This document shows, piece by piece, positions 19,910 to 48,415 of a stretch of 64,000 nucleotides of DNA. A program made the position numbers and the translations under genes. Position 1 is the first letter of the stretch. Each line of letters starts with the position of its first letter. Below the pieces are notes generated by a model. It saw only the letters and a list, made by a program, of their open reading frames with translations. It made no database searches and had not been told where the DNA came from. This DNA is from Flectonema sp. DT1601. Taxonomy: Eukaryota. The stretch spans positions 558,001 to 622,000 of the forward strand of contig OZ025800.1 of assembly GCA_964019425.1 (NCBI GenBank), given 5' to 3'.

Positions 19910-21637
19910 ATGGTCGATGACTTACTTTGCAAACCCCGAGTTCCCTTGTTGCGTTTGCTTGTTGTCTTTTCAGTAATGAAGCTGTGTTTGTCGGATTGTT
20001 ATGAAGCTTTGCCTTCGAACTTTCCGACTTGTTTAGATTATACCACTCATGGTTATACTTGTGTATCAAGTGGTTGGTGTGTAGTTGATGGATGTGCTGG
20101 GAACTGTCCTATTTGTGCTGATCATTTTGTGAATAAGGTTCCAAATTATGCAACCGGGAGATGTGTCATAGCTACAGCCATTCCAACAGCCATTCCAACA
20201 GCCATTCCAACAGCCATTCCGACAGCCATTCCGACAGCCATTCCGACAGCCATTCCAACGGCCATTCCAACAGCAGTTCCCACTGCACTTCCTACAAGTG
20301 TGCCGACTGCAGTCCCGACGCTTGTTCCCACGTCCGTGCCGACTGCAAATCCGACAGCGGTTCCAACACTTGTTCCCACAGCGATTCCGACAACCGTACC
20401 GACTATTGTCCCGACAGTCATTCCGTCGACGAAGTCACCAAGCTATGTGGTTTCCTCTGTGAAGAAGGAAACCCCTATTGCCAAGAATGGAGGTATCACA
20501 GTTCCGTCGAACATCGCATTGGCCACTGGGGCGCTGACCACGTCGGGAGCTCAAGCAGTAGCTCTCGCTTACACGGTGAGAAGGATCACCTGCCTCGTCG
20601 AAGCTGAGAATGATGAATTAGACCTGTTTATGCACCCGCTTGGGTTTCCAGTTGCCGGTTCGTATTGGGCGGGAGCCGTAGTTGGCGGTTGTATTCTTTG
20701 TTTTGGTGTTGTGGTTTTTCATGTGGGACTTCATTTTATAGTTAAGGCTTGCACGGGTGCGTCCAAGAGGAAGTCGGTAGCAAGGAGACTGAGATATCCG
20801 TCTGCTGTCATCCCTCCGTTGCTCATTTGTGCCGTGAACATTGCGACTTGCAGTGTGTTGTTGCTTAAGGAAAGCAAACTTCCTGTGATCGCAGTTTCTG
20901 GAATCTGCATCTCGATTGGAATTCCCGGAGTTGTGATGTGGCTGTTCAAACTTGACTCATCGAAGTGTCAGTTTATCAAGGGAACGGTTCCGAAAAGCAA
21001 ACTATTTGTATACTTCTTGGGGGATGCTGCGTGGGAATCCACAGACGCCAACGACATTTTGTACGTGGAATCAAACGGGTCGGTATTTGATGCTCACACA
21101 GAGCAGAAGTGGATCAGAGGACACTATTTCCTTCTTGAGTTTTGGATGACTATTCCTGTTGTTTTGGTTTTATTGATTGAAAGTTGCGATGCGAGAGCAT
21201 GGATATTATTTATTGTGAACGTCTTGCAGCTTGTAATGGTTTTAAACTGTTGCATCTACAGCTCAAACTTCCTGACTCACCTGTCAGTTGCCACGTGTTT
21301 GGCAACATGCGTTCTGATCGTGTGCTCTCTCACTGGATTTGGAGGGGAGTTGGTGTTGACGCCTATGTTGTTGGCGCTCACCATTGTGAGATCTATTTAC
21401 GACTTTGTTTGTTACATTCTTGAGATGCTTTTTTCCGTCAGGGAATTGAAGTTGGAGAGGAATGCTGTCGATGTCTCAAACGTCGAACTCGGGGAATCAA
21501 TGCAGCAGTCGTTGATAAGTATCGATTCGTTGGAAAATGGTATACATCCTGTGCCTTCCTTTGCAGCACCATTGAGTACAGCAACACCTTCGCTGAACTT
21601 TTTACATTGGGAAGACAGTCGGGATGTCACGTTTTAA
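19910..21637 (+). CDS. Surface/membrane protein copy 2 (8 TAIP units)
   Basis: Intact 575-aa paralog of 15914-17569. Confidence 0.88.
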   Translation: MVDDLLCKPRVPLLRLLVVFSVMKLCLSDCYEALPSNFPTCLDYTTHGYTCVSSGWCVVDGCAGNCPICADHFVNKVPNYATGRCVIATAIPTAIPTAIPTAIPTAIPTAIPTAIPTAIPTAVPTALPTSVPTAVPTLVPTSVPTANPTAVPTLVPTAIPTTVPTIVPTVIPSTKSPSYVVSSVKKETPIAKNGGITVPSNIALATGALTTSGAQAVALAYTVRRITCLVEAENDELDLFMHPLGFPVAGSYWAGAVVGGCILCFGVVVFHVGLHFIVKACTGASKRKSVARRLRYPSAVIPPLLICAVNIATCSVLLLKESKLPVIAVSGICISIGIPGVVMWLFKLDSSKCQFIKGTVPKSKLFVYFLGDAAWESTDANDILYVESNGSVFDAHTEQKWIRGHYFLLEFWMTIPVVLVLLIESCDARAWILFIVNVLQLVMVLNCCIYSSNFLTHLSVATCLATCVLIVCSLTGFGGELVLTPMLLALTIVRSIYDFVCYILEMLFSVRELKLERNAVDVSNVELGESMQQSLISIDSLENGIHPVPSFAAPLSTATPSLNFLHWEDSRDVTF

Positions 21638-23670: not shown

Positions 23671-23934
23671 ATTCTTTCCCTCGTTCATTTCATTGTTTAT
23701 CATTTCCTTCTTTCCTTTTTTTTTCAACCATCTCTAACACAAATGTTGACTCATTCATTACAACAGTTTGTCTTTGTCTCTATCCTCAGTGAGGGTCTCA
23801 AGATTGTTTGGTATTGAACAATAAATCCTTGGAACCTTATTTTAACTTCGTTAAAAAAAAAAAAAAAAGAAAAGCAAAATCAATGTTTTTAATGTAGTTC
23901 AACTTCTACGTTGTTTATTATTATCATTTAAATA

Positions 23935-24592
23935 TGAGTATTAATTGGGGGGATGCTTAAGTTGACATAATTCAACTCGAAACAGTTTAATTATTATCGA
24001 GTAGGGATTCCGGCGCCGAGCGCGAAAAGCGCGAGGGGTCGGCATCACCACGAGAAGATAATTATGAGTTTAGAGTTAGACATTATGTCAACTTACCGCC
24101 CAATTTTATATTTAATGCCATAAATTAGAATTAGGACTGTGCACATTTCATCACGAGAACCGCTGCTGATTTCTTCCATTTCACTATTGCCCTCCCCATA
24201 ATTACACTCACGGGCTCAATAATTTTACGTTTGAAAGAAGCGTGAAATTAGGGCTCATAATGCCACTGAGGTCATAATCACACTCTTACTGATGCCCATT
24301 ATCCACATCCATTAAATTATCCTCCCGGAAAACTTAAAATCACCCCCAACATAATTGCCATTATGTCAAAATCACCCGGATTATTACAGGTCAATAACTA
24401 CATCGCCACAGCCATTTTAAACCAAAAACAGAAAATCATAATTTTACTGCTGTATTAGATTTGGTCTTAACTTCACGCTTTTGTGATAATTTCGATTTGC
24501 CAGCCATCGGCCTTGTGTACGGAATGTAATTATCGGAAACTTTCTACTCCGCGAGTGATGAAATGTGCACAGAAATAATTCGTTTATGGCAT
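23935..24592. mobile_element. 658-bp non-coding element built from two internal inverted-repeat modules, flanked by TA
   Basis: Near-identical reverse-complement copy at 27969-28626. Internal IRs taagttgacataat/attatgtcaactta and taatgccataaa..tgtgcacatttcatcac / gtgatgaaatgtgcaca..tttatggcatta. Confidence 0.85.
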
Positions 24593-25756
24593 TAAATAAA
24601 TAAAATAAATATTATTATCATTTGTAATAATTGAAATGAAGGGAAAACTTCTACCCTCGCTAATCCCCATATCCTAAGTTAATTATTTATTTAATTATAC
24701 TTTCAATCTTTCACCTGTAATCAGATGAAGGTGGAAGCATTGCATTAGTAATTGAGTAGAGCAACAGATGTTGATATTAGACTACCAACCGCTTGTTTGT
24801 CTTCACTGATATCACCAGCTGGTGAAATCGTTAATATAATATTAATTTACTCAATCGTTCTTAATATCCTTTTGTTAACATCAATTTAATCTTAATGACA
24901 CAGTTGGAATGTCCTCGTTTTTCACTAAAATAAATTTTGATTATCGAATGTTGAGTGTTTTGTTCAGCTAACTATCTGTTTCATCAATTCATTTATTTTA
25001 TTTGTGGTGGTCTCGCTGATATAGCTGCTGACTGTTTCGTTTTCTGATATTGACGTGGGAAAATCATAAATAGATAAATCCTTTCTAACTCGCTTTCTGC
25101 TGCAGTATTTGGGTCTAGCAACCCACCCAACTGATACTCGGTGATTCCTACTAACTAACTCTCTTGCAATTGTGCATGTGTTTCTTCATTGCAGAAGTGT
25201 AATGATACCATTATACCTTCGGCTTTAGTTGACGGGTAAAATGAATTGTAACTTCCTTAATTCACTTCTCATCAATTCATCAGAATAAAGACAATGATGG
25301 TCGAAGTGTTTGTTCTTAGCGTTGTGGTTATATGAAAAAGTTAAAAGAGAGCAACAAGGAGAAGATGTATTTATTATTAGGACACTATTTAACACGCACT
25401 AGTGCACTCGAGCAACTACTTAGTTGTGATCGTGTTGTGATAAAATTTTATATTCATTTCCTTATCAGAAGCTGCAACCCTTGCCTAAACTAATATGATA
25501 CCACTTTGGTAAGTATTCAAATGGAGAGCTCAGATGGATTTGAATCTATACTGGTGTAGGGCGATGTATTTAAAAAAGTGTTGCTTTAATTTCACTTCGG
25601 AATCTTAGTTTTCTTTCTAAACATCAACATCATCAATGGTCGAGGTGATTGAACTGAATCTGTTTATGGTGAGCTACTAATTCTTTTTGTTTTTGAGAGC
25701 TGGCAAATACCAAATATGAAAACCTTCCTTTCCCCTCTCCAGTTTCTCCAGTTGGG

Positions 25757-27472
25757 ATGGTCGATGACTTACTTTGCAAACCCCGAGTTCCCTTGTTGCG
25801 TTTGCTTGTTGTCTTTTCAGTAATGAAGCTGTGTTTGTCGGATTGTTATGAAGCTTTGCCTTCGAACTTTCCGACTTGTTCAGATTATACCATTTCTGGT
25901 TATACTTGTGTATCAAGTGGTTGGTGTGTAGTTGGTAAATGTAATGCATCCTGTACAACTTGTGCTGATCATTTTGTGAATAAGGTTCCACATTATGCAA
26001 CCGGGAGATGTGTCATAGCTACAGCCATTCCGACAGCCATTCCAACAGCCATTCCAACAGCCATTCCAACAGCCATTCCGACAGCCATTCCAACGGCCAT
26101 TCCAACAGCAGTTCCCACTGCACCTCCTACAAGTGTGCCGACTGCAGTCCCGACGCTTGTTCCCACGTCCGTGCCGACTGCAAATCCGACAGCGGTTCCA
26201 ACACTTGTTCCCACAGCGATTCCGACAATCGTACCAACTATTGTCCCGACAGTCATTCCGTCGACGAAGTCACCAAGCTATGTGGTTTCCTCTGTGAAGA
26301 AGGAAACCCCTATTGCCAAGAATGGAGGTATCACAGTTCCGTCGAACATCGCATTGGCCACTGGGGCGCTGACCACGTCGGGAGCTCAAGCAGTAGCTCT
26401 CGCTTACACGGTGAGAAGGATCACCTGCCTCGTCGAAGCTGAGGATGATGAATTAGACCTGTTTATGCACCCGCTTGGGTTTCCAGTTGCCGGTTCGTAT
26501 TGGGCGGGAGCCGTAGTTGGCGGTTGTATTCTTTGTTTTGGTGTTGTGGTTTTTCATGTGGGACTTCATTTTATAGTTAAGGCTTGCACGGGCGCGTCCA
26601 AGAGGAAGTCGGTAGCAAGGAGACTGAGATATCCGTCTGCTGTCATCCCTCCGTTGCTCATTTGTGCCGTGAACATTGCGACTTGCAGTGTGTTGTTGCT
26701 TAAGGAAAGCAAACTTCCTGTGATCGCAGTTTCTGGAATCTGCATCTCGATTGGAATTCCCGGAGTTGTGATGTGGCTGTTCAAACTTGACTCATCGAAG
26801 TGTCAGTTTATCAAGGGAACGGTTCCGAAAAGCAAACTATTTGTATACTTCTTGGGGGATGCTGCGTGGGAATCCACAGACGTCAACGACATTTTGTACG
26901 TGGAGTCCAACGGGTCGGTATTTGATGCTCACACAGAGCAGAAGTGGATCAGAGGACACTATTTCCTTCTTGAGTTTTGGATGACTATTCCTGTTGTTTT
27001 GGTTTTATTGATTGAAAGTTGCGATGCGAGAGCATGGATATTATTTATTGTGAACGTCTTGCAGCTTGTAATGGTTTTAAACTGTTGCATCTACAGCTCA
27101 AACTTCCTGACTCACCTGTCAGTTGCCACGTGTTTGACAACATGCGTTCTGATCGTGTGCTCTCTCACTGGATTTGGAGGGGAGTTGGTGTTGACGCCTA
27201 TGTTGTTGGCGCTCACCATTGTGAGGTCTATTTACGACTTTGTTTGTTACATTCTTGAGATGCTTTTTTCCGTCAGGGAAATGAAGTTGGAGAGGAATGC
27301 TGTCGATGTCTCAAACGTCGAACTCGGGGAATCAATGCAGCAGTCGTTGATAAGTATCGATTCGTTGGAAAATGGTATATATCCTGTGCCTTCCTTTGCG
27401 GCACCATTGAGTACAGCAACACCTTCGCTGAACTTTTTACATTGGGAAGACAGTCGGGATGTCACGTTTTAA
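25757..27472 (+). CDS. Surface/membrane protein copy 3 (7 TAIP units)
   Basis: Intact 571-aa paralog. Confidence 0.88.
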   Translation: MVDDLLCKPRVPLLRLLVVFSVMKLCLSDCYEALPSNFPTCSDYTISGYTCVSSGWCVVGKCNASCTTCADHFVNKVPHYATGRCVIATAIPTAIPTAIPTAIPTAIPTAIPTAIPTAVPTAPPTSVPTAVPTLVPTSVPTANPTAVPTLVPTAIPTIVPTIVPTVIPSTKSPSYVVSSVKKETPIAKNGGITVPSNIALATGALTTSGAQAVALAYTVRRITCLVEAEDDELDLFMHPLGFPVAGSYWAGAVVGGCILCFGVVVFHVGLHFIVKACTGASKRKSVARRLRYPSAVIPPLLICAVNIATCSVLLLKESKLPVIAVSGICISIGIPGVVMWLFKLDSSKCQFIKGTVPKSKLFVYFLGDAAWESTDVNDILYVESNGSVFDAHTEQKWIRGHYFLLEFWMTIPVVLVLLIESCDARAWILFIVNVLQLVMVLNCCIYSSNFLTHLSVATCLTTCVLIVCSLTGFGGELVLTPMLLALTIVRSIYDFVCYILEMLFSVREMKLERNAVDVSNVELGESMQQSLISIDSLENGIYPVPSFAAPLSTATPSLNFLHWEDSRDVTF

Positions 27473-27968
27473 TTATTTGGTAGTGTAATTTAGATAATTA
27501 AATTTCCTAACTTCAGCCGTGTCTGATTAAATACCCAGAAGTAATTGTAAATATCAAATAGCCTGTCGGGTTTGAAAGGACATCTGATTGTTGATATCAA
27601 CGTCAACGGAGGCGAATAATAAAATACCACTCGCTAGTTTCAAGCAGCTTCTTTATTTTTGATAGTCGAAAACAAGTTTTGTCCGAAATCTGTTTCACTC
27701 TTTCCTCTCCATGTTGCTTTATGAGGGATTCTTATAAAATAACAAACTTTTGATTTGAAGTATTGTCTTTTTTCCTTTTAGAAATATGTTTGATTTGGTG
27801 AACTATTTTATAGGAAAACTCAAATTCAAACTTGTCATTTCAAAGATTCTGATGTTATCCAGAACATCAGAACAATTTATTTATTGTTTTTATTATCTTA
27901 TTTCCTAAAATATGCAGGCCTTATACCGAAGTAGCTGCCTTGCTTTTAATTTCAGTTTTATTTGTTTA

Positions 27969-28626
27969 ATGCCATAAACGAATTATTTCTGTGCACATTT
28001 CATCACTCGCGGAGTAGAAATAACCCGATAATTACATTCCGTACACAAGGCCGATGGCTGGCAAATCGAAATTATCACAAAAGCGTGAAGTTAAGACCAA
28101 ATCTAATACAGCAGTAAAATTATGATTTTCTGTTTTTGGTTTAAAATGGCTGTGGCGATGTAGTTATTGACCTGTAATAATCCGGGTGATTTTGACATAA
28201 TGGCAATTATGTTGGGGGTGATTTTAAGTTTTCCGGGAGGATAATTTAATGGATGTGGATAATGGGCATCAGTAAGAGTGTGATTATGACCTCAGTGGCA
28301 TTATGAGCCCTAATTTCACGCTTCTTTCAAACGTAAAATTATTGAGCCCGTGAGTGTAATTATGGGGAGGGCAATAGTGAAATGGAAGAAATCAGCAGCG
28401 GTTCTCGTGATGAAATGTGCACAGTCCTAATTCTAATTTATGGCATTAAATATAAAATTGGGCGGTAAGTTGACATAATGTCTAACTCTAAACTCATAAT
28501 TATCTTCTCGTGGTGATGCCGACCCCTCGCGCTTTTCGCGCTCGGCGCCGGAATCCCTACTCGATAATAATTAAACTGTTTCGAGTTGAATTATGTCAAC
28601 TTAAGCATCCCCCCAATTAATACACA
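27969..28626. mobile_element. Second, inverted copy of the 658-bp element
   Basis: Reverse complement of 23935-24592. It interrupts tttgttt|(g/a)atgtctttac, which is intact at ~35065. Confidence 0.85.
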
Positions 28627-29170
28627 TAATGTCTTTACAATTTAGTATTTATTTATTTATTTATTTATTTATTTGTGATATCCTCGTTAGTTTTGCTGAC
28701 ACTTAACTTTTAATTCGAAGGTATTGTGTGTATTCTTTTTATATATTTGATTTAGTTAACTATTTTATAATAACTCAAATTATTAATTTATCATTTTCAG
28801 AACAATTTATTTAATGTTTTTATTACCTTATTTCCTAAAATACATTTTTTTATTATTTTAATGCGCAAACTCGTAAACTAAACTAATGCAGGCCTCATAC
28901 CAATTTTTTGTCCGAAACCTTTATTTGTTTGATGTCCTTGTGATTTATTATTTATTTATGTATTTGTGATATTCCCGTTGGTTTTGCTATTTTTAATTCG
29001 AAGAAATTATGTATCGCAGTGTTAGATTAAGGCCTATGTTTTCCTCAGTGTTATAATGCAATTTATTTTATTTATTTTTATTAATAATCTCATATGCTAA
29101 CTTTTAATTCAAAGGTATTGTCTGTATTCTTTTTATATATTTTGATTTAGTGAACTATTTTATGACAAAA

Positions 29171-29343
29171 CACTGTCTGCTTGGGTGGTGGGTTTAGGTA
29201 GTCATTTGTTCCAGGTTATTCTACGTCTCTTATCGTCTGTGAGAGTCTCACGGTTGCTGGTAGCGATATAACTGTTACTCTGTGAGCTTTTCCTGGCTTT
29301 TGGCTTCCTAGGCTTCGTAAAAAAAAAAAAAAAAAAAAAAAAA
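29171..29343 (+). mobile_element. Severely 5'-truncated copy of the LINE (3' UTR only) with poly(A) tail
   Basis: Near-identical to 42449-42600, followed by about 25 A; the empty site gacaaaaactcaaattcaaactattc is seen at ~35401. Confidence 0.9.
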
Positions 29344-31456: not shown

Positions 31457-33184
31457 ATGGTCGATGACTTACTTTGCAAACCCCGAGTTCCCTTGTTGCG
31501 TTTGCTTGTTGTCTTTTCAGTAATGAAGCTGTGTTTGTCGGATTGTTATGAAGCTTTGCCTTCGAACTTTCCGACTTGTTCAGATTATACCATTTCTGGT
31601 TATACTTGTGTATCAAGTGGTTGGTGTGTAGTTGATAGATGTGTTGCGAACTGTCCTATTTGTGCTGATTATTTTGTGAATAAGGTTCCAAATTATGCAA
31701 CCGGGAGATGTGTCATAGCTACAGCCATTCCAACAGCCATTCCAACAGCCATTCCAACAGCCATTCCAACAGCCATTCCGACAGCCATTCCAACGGCCAT
31801 TCCAACAGCAGTTCCCACTGCACCTCCTACAAGTGTGCCGACTGCAGTCCCGACGCTTGTTCCCACGTCCGTGCCGACTGCAAATCCGACAGCGGTTCCA
31901 ACACTTGTTCCCACAGCGATTCCGACAACCGTACCAACTATTGTCCCGACAGTCATTCCAACTGTAGTTCCGTCAACGAAGTCACCAAGCTATGGGGCTT
32001 CCTCTGTGAAGAAGGAAACCCCCATCGCCGAGAGTAGAAGTGTCACGGTTCCGTCGAACATCGCATTGGCCACTGGGGCGCTGACCACGTCGGGAGCTCA
32101 AGCAGTAGCTCTCGCTTACACGGTGAGAAGGATCACCTGCCTCGTCGAAGCTGAGAATGATGAATTAGACCTGTTTATGCACCCGCTTGGGTTTCCAGTT
32201 GCCGGTTCGTATTGGGCGGGAGCCGTAGTTGGCGGTTGTATTCTTTGTTTTGGTGTTGTGGTTTTTCATGTGGGACTTCATTTTATAGTTAAGGCTTGCA
32301 CGGGCGCGTCCAAGAGGAAGTCGGTAGCAAGGAGACTGAGATATCCGTCTGCTGTCATCCCTCCGTTGCTCATTTGTGCCGTGAACATTGCGACTTGCAG
32401 TGTGTTGTTGCTTAAGGAAAGCAAACTTCCTGTGATCGCAGTTTCTGGAATCTGCATCTCGATTGGAATTCCCGGAGTTGTGATGTGGCTGTTCAAACTT
32501 GACTCATCGAAGTGTCAGTTTATCAAGGGAACGGTTCCGAAAAGCAAACTATTTGTATACTTCTTGGGGGATGCTGCGTGGGAATCCACAGACGTCAACG
32601 ACATTTTGTACGTGGAATCAAACGGGTCGGTATTTGATGCTCACACAGAGCAGAAGTGGATCAGAGGACACTATTTCCTTCTTGAGTTTTGGATGACTAT
32701 TCCTGTTGTTTTGGTTTTATTGATTGAAAGTTGCGATGCGAGAGCATGGATATTATTTATTGTGAACGTCTTGCAGCTTGTAATGATTTTAAAATGTTGC
32801 ATCTACAGCTCAAACTTCCTGACTCACCTGTCAGTTGCCACGTGTTTGACAACATGCGTTCTGATCGTGTGCTCTCTCACTGGATTTGGAGGGGAGTTGG
32901 TGTTGACGCCTATGTTGTTGGCGCTCACCATTGTGAGGTCTATTTACGACTTTGTTTGTTACATTCTTGAGATGCTTTTTTCCGTCAGGGAATTGAAGTT
33001 GGAGAGGAATGCTGTCGATGTCTCAAACGTCGAACTCGGGAAATCAATGCAGCAGTCGTTGATAAGTATCGATTCGTTGGAAAATGGTATATATCCTGTG
33101 CCTTCCTTTGCGGCACCATTGAGTACAGCAACACCTTCGCTGAACTTTTTACATTGGGAAGACAGTCGGGATGTCACGTTTTAA
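31457..33184 (+). CDS. Surface/membrane protein copy 4 (7 TAIP units)
   Basis: Intact 575-aa paralog. Confidence 0.88.
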   Translation: MVDDLLCKPRVPLLRLLVVFSVMKLCLSDCYEALPSNFPTCSDYTISGYTCVSSGWCVVDRCVANCPICADYFVNKVPNYATGRCVIATAIPTAIPTAIPTAIPTAIPTAIPTAIPTAVPTAPPTSVPTAVPTLVPTSVPTANPTAVPTLVPTAIPTTVPTIVPTVIPTVVPSTKSPSYGASSVKKETPIAESRSVTVPSNIALATGALTTSGAQAVALAYTVRRITCLVEAENDELDLFMHPLGFPVAGSYWAGAVVGGCILCFGVVVFHVGLHFIVKACTGASKRKSVARRLRYPSAVIPPLLICAVNIATCSVLLLKESKLPVIAVSGICISIGIPGVVMWLFKLDSSKCQFIKGTVPKSKLFVYFLGDAAWESTDVNDILYVESNGSVFDAHTEQKWIRGHYFLLEFWMTIPVVLVLLIESCDARAWILFIVNVLQLVMILKCCIYSSNFLTHLSVATCLTTCVLIVCSLTGFGGELVLTPMLLALTIVRSIYDFVCYILEMLFSVRELKLERNAVDVSNVELGKSMQQSLISIDSLENGIYPVPSFAAPLSTATPSLNFLHWEDSRDVTF

Positions 33185-35700: not shown

Positions 35701-35998
35701 CATCCAAGACGCTATCCAACACCCCAACTCAGATCGCAGATGTATTTACAACATTACCAAGTACCGTGGATAACACCACCCAACGTAACAATTATACCTA
35801 ACAGAGATTTCAGAAAGTCACAGGACTCGGGACTCAACCTCAAATTTGCCATCGCTTCGTTGGTATCCGATGCGACCATATAGGAGACGTGCTGAGTTCT
35901 CGCGGATGAGATCCAGGGCTGAGATCAGTGCGCGCTGTTCGGCATTGTAAATCATGAGTGACGGATGATAGCGCTGTTGCTTCTTGTAGACCGAGATA
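35701..35998. pseudogene. Rearranged fragment of a second, divergent LINE family: connection region on +, RNase H piece on -
   Basis: The + strand gives QLRSQMYLQHYQVPWITPP (cf. ORF2 ELRSQKVLPHQYPPWSKHPP). The - strand gives YHPSLMIYNAEQRALISALDLIREN (cf. FQPSLTIYNAEQLALLSALELLEEN). Confidence 0.8.
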
Positions 35999-36379
35999 AT
36001 AAACTCATATTCTAACTAGTATAGAATGAAGTCCCTTAGAACGGCGGAGAGCTTTAACGCCTCCTTATTTTTTTCCATTTATTCACAGATTTGTATGAAA
36101 ATGTTCAAGGATATTTTGGTGGGCAAAAAAAGTGCCAATTTTTTTTTTTTTTTTTTTTCATGAACAGCGAAAATTTTTTTTTTTTTTGTTACTGAATGGA
36201 GAAAAAAAATTATCACTATCAGTGAACAGCGAAAAAAAAAAAAATTCTTTTACTGAATAGCGAAAATGGAATTATTGGACCCCCCAATAGCGAAAATCTC
36301 TATATTTTATTTTAGTGCACTTTTTTATAATAAACTCTTATTCTAACTAGTATAAGATTAAGGCTCCTGAAACTACATA

Positions 36380-36394
36380 TTCTGTACTTTATTG
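36380..36394 (+). other. Spliced-leader 3' remnant TTCTGTACTTTATTG at the 5' end of the retrotransposon
   Basis: 15/15 match to the conserved 3' end of kinetoplastid/diplonemid SL exons as recalled; ends 20 nt before the ORF1 ATG; followed by AT, not the GT of an SL gene intron. Confidence 0.8.
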
Positions 36395-36414
36395 ATTTCC
36401 AATAATTAACAACT

Positions 36415-38136
36415 ATGACATTGGATCCAGGCCTATTTGGCCTGATGCTGGAGAAGATGGTGGGCATGCTCGGTGAGATGCAGAAGGGTTTGAATGTAAA
36501 GGGGGTTACTAAACGCAACGGGGGAGAGAAGCCATCGGTGGATTTATCGCCGATGAATGAGGAATGGACGAGGGTACGTGGTAAGCGGCCCAAGGTAGTG
36601 AAGCGCAAGCCTGAGCCGGCTCAAGCGCTGAATTCGTTTAGTGGACTGAAGGAGGTCCGATGTGATGGGAAGGCAGCAACTAATTTACCGAATGTGCAAG
36701 AGAAGCGGTGGGACTGCCAACTCCGTGATGATGACTGGTCTGTTCCAATAATTTCGATGTCAGGCGTGTTTAACACGTCGATTACGTGTGGTGTGTCACT
36801 GGGCACGGCCTCTGATGTAGATGCGATGATTAAACTCCGACCGGGAACAAACCTCTCGGTAATTTGCAAGAAAAACCCTGGGGGCGGTAAGAAGATACAG
36901 TTCCCGGCGGTGGTAAACGACGGTGTACTGACACATCGGACCGGTTGGATTGTATCAACCGGGAAACCAGCTACCCTCTTCCGTGGAGACGCTCTGACTG
37001 CCGGTGACAATCGAGTGGTATTGTTCCACCACCACGCGCTCCACTCCAACGACAAGGTACCTTCACCTAATGAGTTGTGCAAGAAGGCTTCTGACTACTA
37101 CACAGCAGTCACGAACATGCCCATCGAGCCGCACCTCTTGTGGCCTGCCAACAAGAAGGAATCAGACCCTCATGTTAAGTCTGTGAACATGAGGGTGCCA
37201 GCAGACGCTGTTGACGCCTTGAGAAGGGCAAGTGGGAGTGGTGGGTACTTCTTATCAGTACCGAATTTCGCAGACACAGCACCGTGCAGGTCGTCAATCC
37301 AGCTCACGGTGGATTTTAAGTTAGCCTCATCGCTAGCCGGTGAACTCCGGTTACCTCTGAGGTTCTACCGCCACTCACGCAAGCTGGGGATTGTGTGTCT
37401 GAAGACCGACGAAGATTACGTGCGATCGAAGCTGGGTGAGAATGCACTGCCGCCTCCACCTGAAGGCCTCAAGTTCTGTTTGAGGAGCCGAGCAATTGAT
37501 GCGATGAGTTCGCTGGAAGTAGTGCAGGTCTGTGCTCACCAAGGGTGGGAGATTAACGTCGTTGCTAGGTACAGGAGCAGAAAGGAGCTTCCTAAGATGA
37601 TTGTAGTGGCCAAGGAGAAACCCAAGAGTAACTTCATCATTCTTCGTGATGACATGATCACAATCAAAGAGGTGGGTCTCGGCAAGCAGAATCCCGATAA
37701 GATGGACCTGGACGAGTTTCCTCACCTCTGTCAACCTAACGCTGCGCCATCTGTTGGAATTGATTTATCACCACCGCCTGTTTCTCAGCAAAATCAGCAA
37801 AATCAGCAATATCTGCAGACGCTACAATCGAACAAACAGCAGCTGCCCCTACCGCCTTCGCAGTACAACTGTCAACAATCCGACATTTCTAAATTGGTAT
37901 CGCAGGTTACTGAACTAACGGCTGCTGTGAAGAGTCTACGGCAGGACCTTGCTGAAGAGAGGGATGCGAATAGATGTCTTCGAAAGGAGATTGAGTCCCT
38001 GAATAACGATAAAGGATCGGGTTCTCAGAGGCTGACGGTCTCAAGTAGGCAACGAGCTAACTCTGTTGCTGCTACTAAGTCTGAAATGGCTGACCGTCTT
38101 GACCGGAATGAGAAACGGGACTACTCGAGGAATTAA
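36415..38136 (+). CDS. Retrotransposon ORF1 (gag-like position; Gln-rich linker and C-terminal coiled coil)
   Basis: 573-aa ORF directly upstream of and in frame with ORF2; heptad pattern ISKLVSQVTELTAAVKSLRQDL. Confidence 0.8.
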   Translation: MTLDPGLFGLMLEKMVGMLGEMQKGLNVKGVTKRNGGEKPSVDLSPMNEEWTRVRGKRPKVVKRKPEPAQALNSFSGLKEVRCDGKAATNLPNVQEKRWDCQLRDDDWSVPIISMSGVFNTSITCGVSLGTASDVDAMIKLRPGTNLSVICKKNPGGGKKIQFPAVVNDGVLTHRTGWIVSTGKPATLFRGDALTAGDNRVVLFHHHALHSNDKVPSPNELCKKASDYYTAVTNMPIEPHLLWPANKKESDPHVKSVNMRVPADAVDALRRASGSGGYFLSVPNFADTAPCRSSIQLTVDFKLASSLAGELRLPLRFYRHSRKLGIVCLKTDEDYVRSKLGENALPPPPEGLKFCLRSRAIDAMSSLEVVQVCAHQGWEINVVARYRSRKELPKMIVVAKEKPKSNFIILRDDMITIKEVGLGKQNPDKMDLDEFPHLCQPNAAPSVGIDLSPPPVSQQNQQNQQYLQTLQSNKQQLPLPPSQYNCQQSDISKLVSQVTELTAAVKSLRQDLAEERDANRCLRKEIESLNNDKGSGSQRLTVSSRQRANSVAATKSEMADRLDRNEKRDYSRN

Positions 38137-38160
38137 CAACCACTTCCAATTGACTCTTTA

Positions 38161-41100
38161 TTGGGAAAGACTCCGTCCTTGGAGTACTATTATTCTGTGA
38201 GTGGGCTTCTGGAACTCTATCGTAGTGGTTTTCCGAGACACCCTGGTCCGATGTCTGATATATCGCCGCTGAGAATACTTAGTTGGAATGCGCTGTCGAT
38301 GGTAAAGCACCATGAATCTCTGGTACGGCTCGTTCAATCGGCTAATCCTGACATCCTCCATATTCAAGAAACTTGGCTCACTGATCTGGTTCTTGATGAA
38401 CAGATTCAACTTCAGGGATACACCTGCTTCCGTAGGGACAGAATCAGATTAAATTTTGATGGCAAGGCAAAACGCGGTGGTGGACTGGCGACTTTCTGCA
38501 GGGACTCCCTTGTGGTCAGGAGATTATCGGATCCAACTGAGCGTAATTCACCGTTTGAGGTGTTAGTTGTCGAGGTAATGACAGACATCGGTCCGATTAC
38601 GTCTTCTAATGTGTATATTCCGCAGAATTTCTTGGTGCCGACCTCTGTTGTCTTCGGTGAAGTAGTATGTGGAGATTTCAATGCTCACCATCGGTCGTGG
38701 TCGAGGGTGGTTCCAACAAGTAGTTCGTCGCGAGGTCTGTCAGTTCTTGATTGGATTAACGGAAATGGACTGCAGATTTGCGATGTTCCGCTGGATACAA
38801 GACCTTGTTCAGAGACTTCACCTGATTTGTTTCTTGTCGACAGCAATATTGAGGTGTTGAATGTACACCAATACAGTGCGTCTGATAGTGGGTCCGACCA
38901 CACGCCAATAGTGGTTGACATCTCGGTATATCCGGGCTGCTCACAAATTACCACTCCCGCTCACCGCCGCTGGTTCTACAACAAGTTCGAGGATGAGCAC
39001 TGGGTCTCATTTCGCGTGCTAACTGAAGCGCGAGCTCATCGTTTGGAGGGGATGTCTAATGTGAACAAGCTTGGATGTGAATTTATTAGTCTAATTGAGG
39101 AGGTGGCTATTGAAACGCTTCCAAACAAATGGTTCAAATCTGATACGAAGCGGAGGAAGAAATTACCTAAGCTGAGACCTGATCTTATTGCGAAAATTGG
39201 TTCTTCAAAAGGAGCGGCCTGGGCCTTCGACAAACTGCGGGAACTCAGGGGCGGTCGGTCTAATTCGAAGGAAGTTCCGGTAGCTGCTGATGATTTACTC
39301 GACCATTTCTTTGGTGATTCAAAATCCTCACCGTTATTAGTTCCTGATTCGAAGCCTGCTGATTATGATGACTCAAGCTGTGGTTCTTTTTCGATTCATG
39401 AGTTATACACGGTACTGAAGTCATTGACTCCCTCCCACGGGTCTGGTTTAGATTCTGTTTCTAATAATATGCTGCTTAACTTGGGTCCCCGTATGCTCCT
39501 ACTATTGCTTAGACTCGCCTCGCTATCTTTCAGGAGGGGTATCTTTCCCTCTTGCATGAAAAAGGCCAAGGTGATAATAATTCCGAAGGGAGGGGATCGT
39601 GACCCGCTTCTTCCGTCTTCTTACAGACCAATCTCTTTGACGTCAATTGTTTCGAAGTGCTTGGAGTCGCTTGTAGGTAATCGATGTGAACATTTGTTGG
39701 AGGGGAAGTTGGACCCTAGGCAGTCTGGTTTTACGCCGGGCAGAAATGTAGAAGAGAACATCTCGCTATTGGTGGATGCGGCTTCCGGTGTGCAGAAACT
39801 CTATGATGGTTATGGAGCGATCATCCTCTTTGATATCTCTGGGGCATTCGATAACGTGGATCATCAAATACTCGTTGATAGATTGGTAGCTGTCCTGCCG
39901 GTTCCGTATGTTAAATGGCTTGCGAATTATCTTTCGGATAGAAATGTGAGTCTGTCTCTGGGATTAGATAATGGATCCAGATCGTGTACAAAGGGGGTCC
40001 CTCAAGGATCTGTGCTTGGTCCTCTCTTATTTCGGATCTTTGTCGACTCCCTGCCAGGTCTAATAAGTGATGCTGATCTCAGTGTTCTGTTTGCTGATGA
40101 TCTTGCCGTGTTTCTGCAACATGAGAAGATAGATGGGATCGAAGCGAAGGGCCTGTCCGTCATCTCTCAGATAGAAGGTTGGATGGTTTCCTCTAAGATG
40201 GAGGTAAACATGAAGAAAACAGAGTACGTTGCCTTTGGTAAGCGCATCTCTGGCTCCGATGTCGAATGGAGTAGGGCACCTCGCTTTTACTTCCCATCGT
40301 CTGTTGAAGAGTTACACATGCCTACAGGCTCTGCCGGTGCTCTCACTGAGAAGCTTTCTCCATCAATAGGGGCAGTTCTGGATCTCGCTGATGCTTTGCT
40401 GCCACTGGAGATTGATGGTTACCCGGTGACGAGACGTTCTGACTTTGTCCGACTGGCCTGTGCTCGTAAGAGCAAAGAGTTCAGGCTGAAAGCAGCGATC
40501 CCGCTGAAACGTGTCAGGAGCGCGAAATACCTAGGAGTTATCATTGATGACTCGCTATGCTTCGACGAACAGGTGGATAAGATTGTGAAAACAATTCGAG
40601 CTGGTTGCGGTTTACTCAAAATGTTCTCTGCCTATGAGGTCAAAACTGATACCCTTCGTCAGCTTGTAGATGGTGCAGTGTTATCTCGAGCGTTCTTTGG
40701 ACTAAAGGCCTTTTCTCCCTTTTTGTCTGATGCTCAGATCAAGCGGATCGAAGCGTGCTTGCGTCATCTAAGGATAAGACTCACTGGTTGCTCGTTCTCG
40801 ACGAAGGATGTGGTGCTCACAGTTGAGTCGCGAATTCCACCGCTGCAACAAACGATATCTAGGCTCCTTGCCCTAGTTCATGAAGATTTGCTAAGGCGAC
40901 AACCTGAATGTCCTTCATGGAGGCTGTTTAACGGTGGTGAGAAGAAGAGACCATGGCAGACTAGAGTTGAAGCCTGTTCCTCGGAATTTTCTCTGTCAGA
41001 GCTTAGGTCCCAGAAAGTTCTGCCACATCAGTACCCTCCGTGGTCGAAGCATCCTCCTTTGGTTGTAAACACGTCCTGCGGTTATGACAAGACTGACACA

Positions 41101-42300
41101 CCTGAGGAGAAGTATACTGTGGCGATGACGACCCTCAATGAACTGCCCCCGTGTGTTGCTGAAGTCTACACTGATGCCTCGGTCTTCCATGACGAGGAGC
41201 GGGGATTATTATGTGGGGGGGCTGCTGTTCTGCTAGTTGCTGGCAAGGTCATTGAGAAGCTCTCCAAGTTCCAACCGTCCCTCACGATTTACAATGCAGA
41301 ACAACTAGCACTATTGTCAGCCCTTGAACTACTAGAGGAGAATCTTCATGTTGTTTCGCATGGCGTGATTCATATTTTCAGTGATTGTCAGTCGGCGCTT
41401 GCCTCCCTGCATAGGGGGCCATCCAGGCAGTCATCATCAACAAATCGTGAGATTTTTGAACGCTCAGTGCTTCTTGATAGGCCGTTGATTTTCCAACATG
41501 TCCCATCTCATTGTGGCATTGCAGGGAATGAACTGGCTGATACACTGGCAAAGAAGGCAGCCTTGCAATCAGTTGACCCTGAACTAACTCCGTATGATTT
41601 CAGGATGGCTCAATGTTGTATTAAGAAACAAGCAAATTGGAAGGCTATGGGTACTGTGGACTCTTCGCATTCATACAGCAAAGCGACTCTAGGATCTGGC
41701 CCTCAGCGTTTCCTTCCCTGTCTCACTAGGGGGCAGGAGGTAGAATTGTCTCGTCTGCGAACCTCTCACCACAGGCTTGTAAAGCTACCGAGGGTCACTG
41801 CGGGCTTTAAATGTTGTCTGTTCTGTGGCTTTCAGGATACCTCAACTGAGCATCTGCTGCTTGAATGCGTTGAGACCAGGGAATTAGTAAAGCAAACCAT
41901 GAGATTTCCGACACCTGATGATGAGCTATCTCTGGATATGTTCTTTCGAACCGAATGGCAGCCTTTCACGTTGTTATTGATCAGCAAGCTTGATAATCAT
42001 CTTAAAGAGTTATCTGACAATCCGTTGTTGTTGAAGTTTCCGCTTCAGGGTATTTTTGTGAGGAAGAAACTAATCACACACATCGAAAGGAAGACAAGTT
42101 TCTCGCTACTGGGTTCTGATGTGAAGAAATATGTTATGGAACTTATTGATAACGCTTATAAAGCTACCGATTTAAATGTTGTTATTGACGACCTTTCTAT
42201 GGTTAATGTGCTGGTCAATCCTAGCTGGTCGGAATCCAAGCTTTCTAAGTTCCTCTCTCGCCTAAGTCGCCTCCTGCGAAGTAATCCCCGAGGTAGATAA
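38161..42300 (+). CDS. Retrotransposon ORF2: AP-endonuclease, reverse transcriptase, RNase H and Cys/His motif (first ATG at 38251)
   Basis: APE: LRILSWN, HIQETWL, GDFNAHH, SDHTPI. RT: YRPISLTS, QSGF, FDISGAFD, GVPQGSVLGP, LFADD, KYLG. RNase H: YTDAS, AEQLA, FSDCQSA, HVPSHCGIAGNELAD. C-terminal CLFC..EHLLLEC. Confidence 0.96.
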   Translation: MGKTPSLEYYYSVSGLLELYRSGFPRHPGPMSDISPLRILSWNALSMVKHHESLVRLVQSANPDILHIQETWLTDLVLDEQIQLQGYTCFRRDRIRLNFDGKAKRGGGLATFCRDSLVVRRLSDPTERNSPFEVLVVEVMTDIGPITSSNVYIPQNFLVPTSVVFGEVVCGDFNAHHRSWSRVVPTSSSSRGLSVLDWINGNGLQICDVPLDTRPCSETSPDLFLVDSNIEVLNVHQYSASDSGSDHTPIVVDISVYPGCSQITTPAHRRWFYNKFEDEHWVSFRVLTEARAHRLEGMSNVNKLGCEFISLIEEVAIETLPNKWFKSDTKRRKKLPKLRPDLIAKIGSSKGAAWAFDKLRELRGGRSNSKEVPVAADDLLDHFFGDSKSSPLLVPDSKPADYDDSSCGSFSIHELYTVLKSLTPSHGSGLDSVSNNMLLNLGPRMLLLLLRLASLSFRRGIFPSCMKKAKVIIIPKGGDRDPLLPSSYRPISLTSIVSKCLESLVGNRCEHLLEGKLDPRQSGFTPGRNVEENISLLVDAASGVQKLYDGYGAIILFDISGAFDNVDHQILVDRLVAVLPVPYVKWLANYLSDRNVSLSLGLDNGSRSCTKGVPQGSVLGPLLFRIFVDSLPGLISDADLSVLFADDLAVFLQHEKIDGIEAKGLSVISQIEGWMVSSKMEVNMKKTEYVAFGKRISGSDVEWSRAPRFYFPSSVEELHMPTGSAGALTEKLSPSIGAVLDLADALLPLEIDGYPVTRRSDFVRLACARKSKEFRLKAAIPLKRVRSAKYLGVIIDDSLCFDEQVDKIVKTIRAGCGLLKMFSAYEVKTDTLRQLVDGAVLSRAFFGLKAFSPFLSDAQIKRIEACLRHLRIRLTGCSFSTKDVVLTVESRIPPLQQTISRLLALVHEDLLRRQPECPSWRLFNGGEKKRPWQTRVEACSSEFSLSELRSQKVLPHQYPPWSKHPPLVVNTSCGYDKTDTPEEKYTVAMTTLNELPPCVAEVYTDASVFHDEERGLLCGGAAVLLVAGKVIEKLSKFQPSLTIYNAEQLALLSALELLEENLHVVSHGVIHIFSDCQSALASLHRGPSRQSSSTNREIFERSVLLDRPLIFQHVPSHCGIAGNELADTLAKKAALQSVDPELTPYDFRMAQCCIKKQANWKAMGTVDSSHSYSKATLGSGPQRFLPCLTRGQEVELSRLRTSHHRLVKLPRVTAGFKCCLFCGFQDTSTEHLLLECVETRELVKQTMRFPTPDDELSLDMFFRTEWQPFTLLLISKLDNHLKELSDNPLLLKFPLQGIFVRKKLITHIERKTSFSLLGSDVKKYVMELIDNAYKATDLNVVIDDLSMVNVLVNPSWSESKLSKFLSRLSRLLRSNPRGR

Positions 42301-42943
42301 TGAACGTCTCTTTCCTCTAGTGTAATTTCTTATTTTATTTATTAGTATCATTTCTATTACTTATCATTACTTTATTTCTTATTTTCTGATCTAATGTGGC
42401 GTGTTCTCCCTCTCTTTGGCGAAAATTGGCGTTATCAGCCGTCTCTAACACTGTCTGCTCGCGTGGACGGTGGGTTTAGGTAGTCATTTGTTCCAGGTTA
42501 TTCTACGTCTCTTATCGTCTGTGAGAGTCTCACGGTTGCTGGTAGCGATATAACTGTTACTCTGTGAGCTTTTCCTGGCTTTTGGCTTCCTAGGCTTCGT
42601 AAATAAATAAATAAATAAATAAATAAATTCTATTCCCCTTTGATGTTAGGAAACTGCAGAAATGAATACTTTTCTTTTACTAATCTCTACTTTTCTTATT
42701 CTCACTTTTCTGTTCTAAAATTAATGATACTAACTTTGTTTGATGTCTTTACAATTTATTATTTATTTATTTATTTGTGACATCCTCGTTGGTTTTGCTG
42801 ACACTTAACTTTTAATTCGAAGGTATTGTGTGTATTCTTTTTATATATTTGATTTAGTTAACTATTTTATAATAACTCAAATTATTAATATATCATTTCA
42901 GAACAATTTATTTAATGTTTTTATTATCTTATTTCCTAAAATA

Positions 42944-44351: not shown

Positions 44352-45845
44352 GGAGTAATTCAGCACCCCGTTGCAGCAATGGACTCGCTCGAAAGCGACA
44401 TAGCAGTTTACGTAAATAAAGCTTACAGAAACACCACTGACGATATTAAACTTCGCTTCAAAAACGTAATTCTTAAGCATCTCCACACCAAACTGAGCCG
44501 AGACCTTTCATTCCTTGACTCCCCGCTGTCAAGCAAAGCTCTCAAAGAACTTTCTTCACTACAAAATTCGATGGTTCTCTTAAAAGTAGACAAAGGACAA
44601 CATGATATTGGTTTCATCTGTAAATCCTTCTACCTGAGTCTCCTCAGCAAACAATTAGGAGGTCCAGCCTATCAACAATTGAAAGCAACAGAGGAAGTCA
44701 CTCTAGCCTTCTTAGCTGAGAATAATAAAATCTTAGGAAACAAGCATGCAGATAGACTACCACATCTCTACGGCATGATTAAATTGCACAAGTCAGCTAT
44801 TGGGATGAGATGGATTTCGGGAGCCTCTTCACTCACAGGAACGGAGAAGCAACGTCAATTAGACAAGGAGCATAAAACGGCACCCTTAACACCCATTAAT
44901 TAGACAAACGATTCCCAATACAATCACATCAATCTTAAGGGGAAGGTCTAATTGGAGGTGAGTGTGGATGGGCATCGCTGAATTTTGTTGCAGACCATCT
45001 TTATCTTGACCGAATTAATTTTAGCTATTTGCAAGAACTACAACAAACATTCTACGAAGAACATCAAAAAGTAGAACTTGGCAGCAACGAGCAAACCATC
45101 CCCGGATGGCTGGTTCTCTTTAACCTTTCTGGGGGTAGCAAGTAAACATAAACTCAACAGGGAAATCCACTAGTATTTAGATCCCAGTTCTATGGACTAC
45201 CCAACAATAGCCGCCGCATTCATTTTAAACAAAGCTGGTGCTAGAATGTCACACTACATAGTGGCCCTTGTCTCCTTCGATTCCATTATTGTTAGAGACA
45301 TTCTCAAAGGAGCGACAGACCGACGATTATCATTCGACCATTTTGACAGACATTTTAAACGCCCAGAATATTGTTTTCACATGATTTTAAGAAAAACTCT
45401 GCAGGGTAATAATAATGATGACGACTGTACCATGGCACCCACGAATGAAGGAATTCTACTCCTCACCAACACTAAGGAAAAGCGCAAGAAAGACGACTAC
45501 AGCTCCGATGAAGGAGAACTCGCACTCGTAATAAAACGAACAGATGTAGAAGAGATAGAACGCTGATCAAAAGCAAATATATGCTAGCCCGTCCTGGCGA
45601 GCTCCGATGGACATTAAGAAATCAGTTATTTTGAAATAGACCTAATTGATGGATCCGATTTATTTAACTGGAATGAAGTCCCTAGAACTTACTGATGAAG
45701 GCCTAAGAGGGACAAGTAGTATAAGATTAAGGCTCCCGAAACTACGTATTCCACAGTGTATTATGGAACAGCAGAACAATGTGTTTTTATAATTTTTCTT
45801 TTTTATATTTTATTTTAGTGCACTTTTTTATAATAAACTCATATT
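44352..45845 (+). mobile_element. Internally deleted/decayed Penelope-like (PLE) retroelement remnant with ~19-bp TSD
   Basis: ORF 44379-44903 has VLLKVDKG..IGFICKSFY and LPHLYGMIKLHKS..MRWISG, resembling the PLE RT N-terminus. Flanks are ctaactctcttgcaattgt (44333-44351) and ctaactctcttataattgt (45846-45864); empty site at ~25155. Confidence 0.75.
45669..45755 (+). ncRNA. Hammerhead-ribozyme-like motif in the PLE 3' region
   Basis: CTGATGA (45692-45698) and GAAAC-TAC-GTA (45738-45748) with an imperfect stem aggcctaa/ttaaggct; stem I is not canonical. Confidence 0.35.
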
Positions 45846-46447: not shown

Positions 46448-48415
46448 ATGGTCGATGACTTACTTTGCAAACCCCGAGTTCCCTTGTTGCGTTTGCTTGT
46501 TGTCTTTTCAGTAATGAAGCTGTGTTTGTCGGATTGTTATGAAGCTTTGCCTTCGAACTTTCCGACTTGTTTAGATTATACCATTTCTGGTTATACTTGT
46601 GTATCAAGTGGTTGGTGTGTAGTTGATAGATGTGTTGCGAACTGTCCTTTTTGTGCTGATTATTTTGTGAATAAGGTTCCAAATTATGCAACCGGGAGAT
46701 GTGTCATAGCTACAGCCATTCCAACAACCATTCCAACAGCCATTCCGACAGCCATTCCGACGGCCATTCCAACAGCCATTCCGACAGCCATTCCGACGGC
46801 CATTCCGACGGCCATTCCGACGGCCATTCCAACGGCCATTCCAACAGCCATTCCGACAGCCATTCCGACAGCCATTCCAACAGCCATTCCAACAGCCATT
46901 CCGACAGCCATTCCGACAGCCATTCCGACAGCCATTCCAACAGCCATTCCGACAGCCATTCCAACAGTTATTCCGACAGCCATTCCGACAGCCATTCCGA
47001 CAGCCATTCCAACAGTTATTCCGACAGCCATTCCAACAGCCATTCCGACAGCCATTCCAACAGCCATTCCAACGCCAGTTCCTACAAGTGTGCCGACTGC
47101 AGTCCCGACGCTTGTTCCCACGTCCGTGCCGACTGCAAATCCGACAGCGGTTCCAACACTTGTTCCCACAGCGATTCCGACAATCGTACCGACTGTTGTC
47201 CCGATAGTCATTCTAACTGTAGTTCCGTCGACGAAGTCACCAAGCTATGGGGCTTCCTCTGTGAAGAAGGAAACCCCTATCGCCGAGAGTAGAAGTGTCA
47301 CGGTTCCGTCGAACATCGCATTGGCCACTGGGGCGCTGACCACGTCGGGAGCTCAAGCAGTAGCTCTCGCTTACACGGTGAGAAGGATCACCTGCCTCGT
47401 CGAAGCTGAGAATGATGAATTAGACATATTTATGCACCCGCTTGGGTTTCCAGTTGCCGGTTCGTATTGGGCGGGAGCCGTAGTTGGCGGTTGTATTCTT
47501 TGTTTTGGTGTTGTGGTTTTTCATATGGGACTTCATTTTATAGTTAAGGCTTGCACGGGTGCGTCCAAGGGGAAGTCGGTAGCAAGGAGACTGAGATATC
47601 CGTCTGCTGTCATCCCTCCGTTGCTCATTTGTGCCGTGAACATTGCGACTTGCAGTGTGTTGTTGCTTAGGGAAAGCAAACTACCTGTGATCGCAGTTTC
47701 TGGAATCTGCATCTCGATTGGAATTCCCGGAGTTGTGATGTGGCTGTTCAAACTTGACTCATCGAAGTGTCAGTTTATCAAGGGAATAGTTCCGAAAAGC
47801 AAACTATTTGTATACTTCTTGGGGGATGCTGCGTGGGAATCCACAGACGTCAACGACATTTTGTACGTGGAATCAAACGGGTTGGTATTTGATGCTCACA
47901 CAGAGCAGAAGTGGATCAGAGGACACTATTTCCTTCTTGAGTTTTGGATGACTATTCCTGTTGTTTTGGTTTTATTGATTGAAAGTTGCAATGCGAGAGC
48001 ATGGATATTATTTATTGTGAACGTCTTGCAGCTTGTAATGATTTTAAAATGTTGCATCTACAGCTCAAACTTCCTGACTCACCTGTCAGTTGCCACGTGT
48101 TTGACAACATGCGTTCTGATCGTGTGCTCTCTCACTGGATTTGGAGGGGAGTTGGTGTTGACGCCTATGTTGTTGGCGCTCACCATTGTGAGGTCTATTT
48201 ACGACTTTGTTTGTAACATTTTAGATGTGTTTTATGCCGTCAGGGAATTGAAGTTCGAGAGGAATGCTGTCGATGACTCAAACGTCGAACTCGGGGAATC
48301 AATGCAGCAGTCGTTGATAAGTATCGATTCGTTGGATAAAAGTGTTCATCCTGTGCCTTCCGTTGGTACTGGGAAGACAGTCGCGAAGTCAGGTTTTAAT
48401 TATTTTGAAATTTAG
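46448..48415 (+). CDS. Surface/membrane protein copy 5 (about 30 12-bp stalk units, altered C-terminus)
   Basis: Intact 655-aa paralog; 12-bp minisatellite at ~46712-47071. Confidence 0.88.
   Translation: MVDDLLCKPRVPLLRLLVVFSVMKLCLSDCYEALPSNFPTCLDYTISGYTCVSSGWCVVDRCVANCPFCADYFVNKVPNYATGRCVIATAIPTTIPTAIPTAIPTAIPTAIPTAIPTAIPTAIPTAIPTAIPTAIPTAIPTAIPTAIPTAIPTAIPTAIPTAIPTAIPTAIPTVIPTAIPTAIPTAIPTVIPTAIPTAIPTAIPTAIPTPVPTSVPTAVPTLVPTSVPTANPTAVPTLVPTAIPTIVPTVVPIVILTVVPSTKSPSYGASSVKKETPIAESRSVTVPSNIALATGALTTSGAQAVALAYTVRRITCLVEAENDELDIFMHPLGFPVAGSYWAGAVVGGCILCFGVVVFHMGLHFIVKACTGASKGKSVARRLRYPSAVIPPLLICAVNIATCSVLLLRESKLPVIAVSGICISIGIPGVVMWLFKLDSSKCQFIKGIVPKSKLFVYFLGDAAWESTDVNDILYVESNGLVFDAHTEQKWIRGHYFLLEFWMTIPVVLVLLIESCNARAWILFIVNVLQLVMILKCCIYSSNFLTHLSVATCLTTCVLIVCSLTGFGGELVLTPMLLALTIVRSIYDFVCNILDVFYAVRELKFERNAVDDSNVELGESMQQSLISIDSLDKSVHPVPSVGTGKTVAKSGFNYFEI

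Follow-up and report, generated by a model that had tools for sequence, protein, structure and literature searches.

The LINE copy at positions 36384 to 42627 on the + strand has at its 5' end the last bases of a spliced leader (SL), joined directly to a short untranslated region, and from this one 5' junction we conclude that the copy very probably originated from an SL-trans-spliced RNA. It lies in the 64-kb stretch of DNA analysed here (the window) and is an intact element of 6.2 kb with APE endonuclease, reverse transcriptase (RT) and RNase H. ORF1 (36415-38136, +) encodes 573 amino acids and belongs to no Pfam family. It is followed by an inter-ORF segment (38134-38250, +) that opens with the TAA stop and CAA CCA and comprises 38 open in-frame codons, the last of them forming a degenerate 2A-like PGP immediately before the ORF2 methionine. 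ORF2 (38251-42300, +) is an intact frame of 1349 amino acids in which the APE (PF03372/PF14529), RT (PF00078) and RNase H (PF00075, E 8e-10) domains were identified with Pfam, and its best PDB relatives are L1 ORF2p and then R2. The 3' UTR (42301-42599, +) leads into a tail of seven TAAA units (42600-42627, +), and its end recurs with 94% identity in a fragment of this family at 29169-29341, where a plain poly(A) run follows. An APE domain followed by a non-LTR RT, together with the tandem 3' tail and a target-site duplication, identifies the element as an APE-type LINE.

The structure predicted for ORF1 has low confidence (pLDDT 62, pTM 0.35) and includes a long C-terminal helix. The model bears a weak, low-confidence likeness to tandem-RRM proteins; it gave no PDB match at E up to 0.001. 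A search of the ESM Atlas, with a best score of 0.80, was uninformative.

The 5' junction and its target

The sequence TTCTGTACTTTATTG occupies 36380-36394 on the + strand and is followed by a 5' UTR of 20 nt that contains no AG (36395-36414, +) and by the ORF1 ATG at 36415, just as an earlier, sequence-only reading of this DNA had described. That reading also took the 15-mer for the 3' end of an SL exon, and the comparison bears this out: it is identical to the last 15 nt of the 39-nt SL exon of Diplonema sp. (PMC3795323, supplement), and the same 15 nt end 8 of the 14 euglenozoan consensus SLs tabulated in that paper, one of the eight having a degenerate W there. The Diplonema sp. SL stands in for the host species' own SL. 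Within the window the 15-mer is the sole match (both strands, at most one mismatch), and a match was found in none of 100 dinucleotide shuffles. The bases that follow the remnant are ATTTCC and not the GT that opens an SL-gene intron. In total, 24 of the 39 SL bases are absent from the copy, among them an internal AG that the Diplonema sp. SL carries 16 nt before its end.

The boundary of the insertion could be placed with a 554-nt contig from a public sequencing run (X1), which aligns to 36348-36383 with a single mismatch; its next 47 bases resemble the 3' flank from 42632 (25 of 30 bases by eye). This contig shows the empty state of the site in a paralogue of the intergenic repeat, which need not be an allele. 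The comparison identifies 36348-36383 (+) as target-derived sequence belonging to a dispersed intergenic repeat module, and defines a target-site duplication, TTCT, at 36380-36383 and 42628-42631 (both +), or ATTCT if position 36379 and the last A of the tail are counted. At 4-5 nt the duplication is short, and it rests on one paralogous contig. The inserted part is therefore 36384-42627. The empty paralogous site and the duplication fix this boundary without recourse to the SL match. Of the 15 SL-like bases, 4 (36380-36383) are thus common to the target and derived from it, and 11 (36384-36394) are specific to the insertion; under local composition, these 11 bases at a fixed site have p = 1.1e-6. 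A TTC microhomology had been proposed for the junction; microhomology is present, but the shared bases are TTCT, a perfect match to the SL that is at the same time the left target-site duplication.

The likeness to the SL continues into the target. Of the 14 target bases nearest the insertion (36370-36383), 11 agree with SL positions 15-28, the SL being that of Diplonema sp. and not of the host. No other of the 6225 registers of SL plus element reaches 11 matches, and this one coincides with the junction; eight window positions (both strands) reach 11/14 to SL positions 15-28. The flank recurs elsewhere without a LINE, so the 14 junction-side bases belong to the target, and the match suggests that the cDNA probably extended deeper into the SL and annealed there to the target. 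Microhomology-guided 5' joining of LINEs is described in the L1 literature. The flank 14-mer is found again exactly at 18062 and with one or two mismatches at 29792, 33810 and 45738. The upstream sequence had been called an unrelated repeat; it is indeed a repeat, but its last 14 nt are not free of resemblance to the SL. Copies of the intergenic repeat module lie at 18062, 29792, 33810, 36369, 45738 and 50372, and several of them diverge right after the same motif, which may mark a recurrent breakpoint or insertion site.

Only 35 nt of element or SL sequence, 15 of them SL, precede ORF1. An Rfam scan of the window returned five weak matches, none of them relevant, and nothing HDV-like at E up to 1. 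No stable 5' fold was found either, the first 101 nt giving z -0.40 against shuffles.

Host genome, related copies and ORF2 expression

The host is likely a diplonemid, a marine protist, as judged from its genes. For the kelch gene at 9854 the best matches with a species name are diplonemid, a Flectonema neradi transcript (74%) and Diplonema papillatum (45%), and neighbouring genes contain gaps that by eye look like GT-AG introns. Seventeen of the 18 ORFs of at least 150 amino acids in the window lie on the + strand. In D. papillatum the genes stand in unidirectional arrays and virtually every mRNA carries an SL (PMC10161547).

The window also contains an intronless glycerate kinase gene at 6204-7358 (PF02595, E 6e-111) and five near-identical membrane-protein genes (15914-17569, 19910-21637, 25757-27472, 31457-33184 and 46448-48415). 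The latter carry a variable Pro-Thr-Ala-Ile repeat stalk, with PF04886 in the one that was scanned, and form a tandem array rich in repeat modules. One repeat-stalk gene is flanked by an inverted pair of 673 bp (23933-24605 and 27956-28628, 99% identity) with no long ORF in six frames. An ORF of 174 amino acids without Pfam match lies at 44379-44903, with a broken continuation downstream; its motifs recall, as we take them, a Penelope-like reverse transcriptase.

The LINE family is young and multi-copy. The exact ORF1 was found on four contigs, and the ORF1 and ORF2 clusters have 8 and 25 members, respectively. Within the ORF1 cluster the start methionine is the same in four of the eight members, corresponding to at least seven contig placements, and the end residue in seven, and the copies differ by up to 4% in protein. 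In a contig from a second public run (X2) unrelated sequence abuts the element at 40546, as expected of a 5'-truncated copy. Three sister families (among the matches listed) are 48-50% identical in the RT region. At E up to 0.001 ORF1 has nine homologues, the longest of 739 amino acids, so there is no ORF1-ORF2 fusion among the nine; one of them comes from the F. neradi transcriptome, which means that a relative of the element is transcribed.

Farther afield, 80 related loci were found in metagenomes at 20-38% best-segment identity, two in prokaryote-labelled contigs at 25-26%, and none in viral contigs. The 11-nt SL end occurs in none of these 82 distant loci, a result that is uninformative about this LINE's own family. 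The two prokaryote-labelled loci are non-LTR retrotransposon-like ORFs (L081 and L082) on short contigs of bacterial metagenome-assembled genomes, which are probably eukaryotic contamination.

The element itself lies in the sense of the + strand cluster, and five related fragments in the window, three of them inside a duplicated segment, are sense-oriented as well. The sequence-only reading had made this orientation a requirement for every copy. An RNase H fragment on the - strand (35869-35991), about 400 nt upstream of the element and closest to one of the sister families (P0025), is antisense, which shows that insertions also occur in the opposite orientation.

How ORF2 is translated can be approached from the inter-ORF segment. 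ORF1 and ORF2 are in the same frame, separated by one conserved TAA and the 38 open codons, and the stop context TAA CAA CCA fits the pattern CAR-YYA, which occurs at 1 of 10 long ORFs checked and at 0.0014 per base in the element. Such a context has been described as promoting readthrough of UAG in plant viruses (PMC3159437); the stop here is UAA. Readthrough of the ORF1 TAA is thus a speculative route to ORF2, to be taken as a lead. RNA structure between the ORFs is no better than that of shuffles (z 0.13), which speaks against a structural readthrough stimulator. ORF2 has an in-frame ATG of its own, with seven AGs no more than 140 bases away, so that reinitiation or a separate SL mRNA for ORF2 is also possible. 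The linker carries the degenerate 2A-like motif ending in HPGP, and NPGP is found in all three viewed members of one sister family, both motifs being without the D(V/I)E part. In two sister families the first called methionine falls inside the APE domain (5 of 5 viewed members), a hint that ORF2 may be entered without an AUG. At 38156-38163, 87 nt ahead of the ORF2 start codon, 8 nt match the SL end; this match is one of five on the + strand and is probably due to chance, though it could be a decayed relic.

Template of the insertion and propagation of the family

The observations at the locus, namely the SL remnant, the 20-nt UTR, two intact ORFs, the TAAA tail, the 4-5 nt duplication and the sense orientation, can be accommodated in the following route. 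Transcription of a donor copy inside a gene cluster would have come first, and its RNA would have received the SL at an acceptor immediately upstream of the 20-nt UTR. Following general LINE biology, the translated RNA would then have been used in cis, with target-primed reverse transcription starting from the tail. To judge from the 11/14 match, the cDNA would have reached at least 25 nt into the SL. There, at SL position 28, the nicked top strand of the target may have annealed and served as primer for second-strand synthesis, at the cost of the remaining SL bases. It had been suggested that an SL-capped mRNA was copied to its 5' end; the trans-spliced origin is likely, but the copying does not extend that far into the product, given the 24 missing SL bases. 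To be expressed in its turn, a copy without the SL-internal AG is predicted to need an upstream host AG. Candidates lie at 36314, 36349, 36355 and 36361, about 100 bases or less before the ORF1 start and with no intervening ATG; the 20 nt preceding them are 0.50-0.65 pyrimidine, which makes them weaker than the best nearby AG of four of seven host ORFs checked (candidate acceptors, unmapped), at 0.70-0.90, and counts against a promoterless passenger. The statement that each new copy must borrow a host AG was too strong, as copies retaining at least 18 SL bases would carry the AG that lies 16 nt from the SL end. An SL copied in full could in this way restore the acceptor, comparable to what the relics of dinoflagellates show (PMC12014239). 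Finally, readthrough of the ORF1 stop might yield ORF2 from this single mRNA.

Promoter-free polycistronic expression is established for kinetoplastids. It has been suggested for D. papillatum as well (PMC10161547), and since the host would transcribe the element polycistronically, no promoter of its own would be needed. We somewhat favour the full statement that the copy derives from an SL-capped polyadenylated mRNA and that its family is a promoterless passenger of host polycistronic transcription, again drawn from one 5' junction. Repeated promoterless cycles should tend to pile up relic SLs, or to trap host sequence, between SL and UTR, and the lack of both argues against a promoterless family. 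With a stacked relic of 16 nt the agreement with the target would drop to 7 of 14 positions (hand count), so the template more likely had a long SL directly on the UTR and the donor a native acceptor. A single SL placed directly on the UTR also suggests an acceptor native to the donor at that point, something that a pure cycle of borrowed host AGs would not lead one to expect. More ambitiously, one might picture a diplonemid LINE lineage without promoter in which the SL serves both as 5' end and as a handle for second-strand priming at SL-like targets, the SL-internal AG renews the acceptor and ORF2 is made by readthrough; we regard this extended scheme as doubtful, if conceivable.

The rival that comes closest accepts the same events up to second-strand priming and departs from the promoterless passenger in what it makes of the family: the copy would be a spliced by-product of a longer master element that has its own acceptor, and perhaps a promoter, with unspliced RNA renewing the masters and trans-spliced copies mostly ending as dead ends, a trans-splicing counterpart of human L1 SpIREs. 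This is possible, and we hold it tentatively as the less probable course. The single SL directly on the 20-nt UTR, with no stacked relics, speaks for it, as does the 11/14 register, which suits a long, freshly added SL. SpIREs moreover lose promoter activity and are dead ends (PMC5860796), and trans-splicing has been argued to cost a LINE its 5' end (PMC1874656). Against a master, polycistronic transcription makes a promoter needless and no longer 5' end was seen, a point without weight because the four public runs cover neither 36385-36720 nor 36446-37525. We think it improbable that the SL was captured once in an ancestor and inherited as a fixed relic, the RNA having begun upstream or at the relic and been cut at the microhomology. 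Such a history is compatible with a single copy, and a complete relic would yield the same 11/14 register, yet not one of the 15 bases departs from the Diplonema SL, although the ORF1 copies vary by up to 4% in protein.

An origin linked to SL genes, through SLACS/CZAR-like targeting of SL RNA genes or an RT template switch onto SL RNA, is very unlikely. The target does resemble the SL over 14 nt, which could mean a preference for SL-like targets, but ATTTCC stands where the SL intron should begin, the 3' flank is not SL sequence, and SLACS/CZAR insert between SL nucleotides 11 and 12 (PMC5814959). As for a template switch, the match stops exactly at the exon end, as in splicing, and a switch need not do so. 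A chance likeness of an AT-rich junction to the SL can practically be dismissed: the target accounts for 4 of the 15 bases, AT content is high and the SL comes from another species, but a probability near 1e-6 for the 11 specific bases at a fixed boundary, the empty result of the 100 shuffles and a match that runs to the last SL base and stops 20 nt ahead of an ATG all weigh on the other side.

Comparison with known systems

LINEs must rebuild their 5' end at every jump. The euglenozoan LINEs studied so far do so with an internal promoter, a ribozyme and unspliced RNA, and the use of unspliced RNA has been suggested to be general for trypanosomatid LINEs (PMC1874656). An intact copy made from trans-spliced RNA points to the opposite solution of the 5'-end problem in a sister lineage. 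If this is general, SL remnants would constitute a per-insertion record of how far reverse transcription extended and how the 5' junction was primed, and the persistence of a promoterless retroelement in a polycistronic genome would become testable. If the copy is a one-off processed product, it would still seem to be a euglenozoan case of SL recycling, so far mainly described from dinoflagellates.

L1Tc and ingi resemble the element in being APE-RT-RNase H non-LTR retrotransposons of a polycistronic, trans-splicing euglenozoan, and possibly in a 2A-like motif before the APE domain (degenerate here, clearer in a sister family), but they have one ORF, a 5' end formed by a 77-nt promoter/HDV ribozyme, and unspliced transcripts (PMC1874656, PMC5814959, PMC3708506). 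The present element has RNase H after RT as they do; unlike them it is not a single ORF, having a separate ORF1 of 573 amino acids, an SL remnant plus 20-nt UTR and a TAAA tail, and it leaves no room before ORF1 for the 77-nt promoter/HDV ribozyme, as judged without alignment to the Pr77 sequence. No element named ingi or L1Tc was present among the best 120 of 2362 RT matches. SLACS/CZAR use a restriction-like endonuclease. They are likewise euglenozoan non-LTR elements adjoining SL sequence, and they sit inside SL genes (PMC5814959), whereas the element described here has an APE domain, lies at an intergenic repeat site and carries the SL 3' end at its own 5' end. Membership in the SLACS/CZAR group was ruled out, the flanks being intergenic repeat with no SL intron.

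Outside the Euglenozoa, SpIREs are LINE copies made from a spliced form of the element's own RNA with loss of 5' sequence, but there the splicing occurs in cis within a promoter-bearing 5' UTR and the products are dead ends (PMC5860796); here, splicing is of the trans type, ORF1 and ORF2 are both intact, and the copy could be kept alive by read-through transcription from the host. In Hydra an SL is present on about 30% of transposon long reads, so that transposon RNAs use host trans-splicing (PMC12220107). As far as the accessible text of that study goes, this is a case at the RNA level without a reported genomic reverse-transcribed SL, in contrast with the genomic DNA considered here. Among the titles and abstract openings covered, a scope outside which most subscription papers fall, we found no report of a genomic LINE starting with a reverse-transcribed SL. 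In the relic-DinoSL retrogenes of dinoflagellates, as in the element, a genomic SL fragment upstream of a start codon marks a reverse-transcribed trans-spliced mRNA; these are host genes of alveolates, often with stacked relics on their transcripts (PMC6050394, PMC12014239). The dinoflagellate relic is described as the SL minus its first seven bases, which the new SL has spliced out (PMC12014239). In the present case it is an autonomous LINE itself that is tagged; the organism is a euglenozoan, there is a single remnant, and the target duplication can still be seen.
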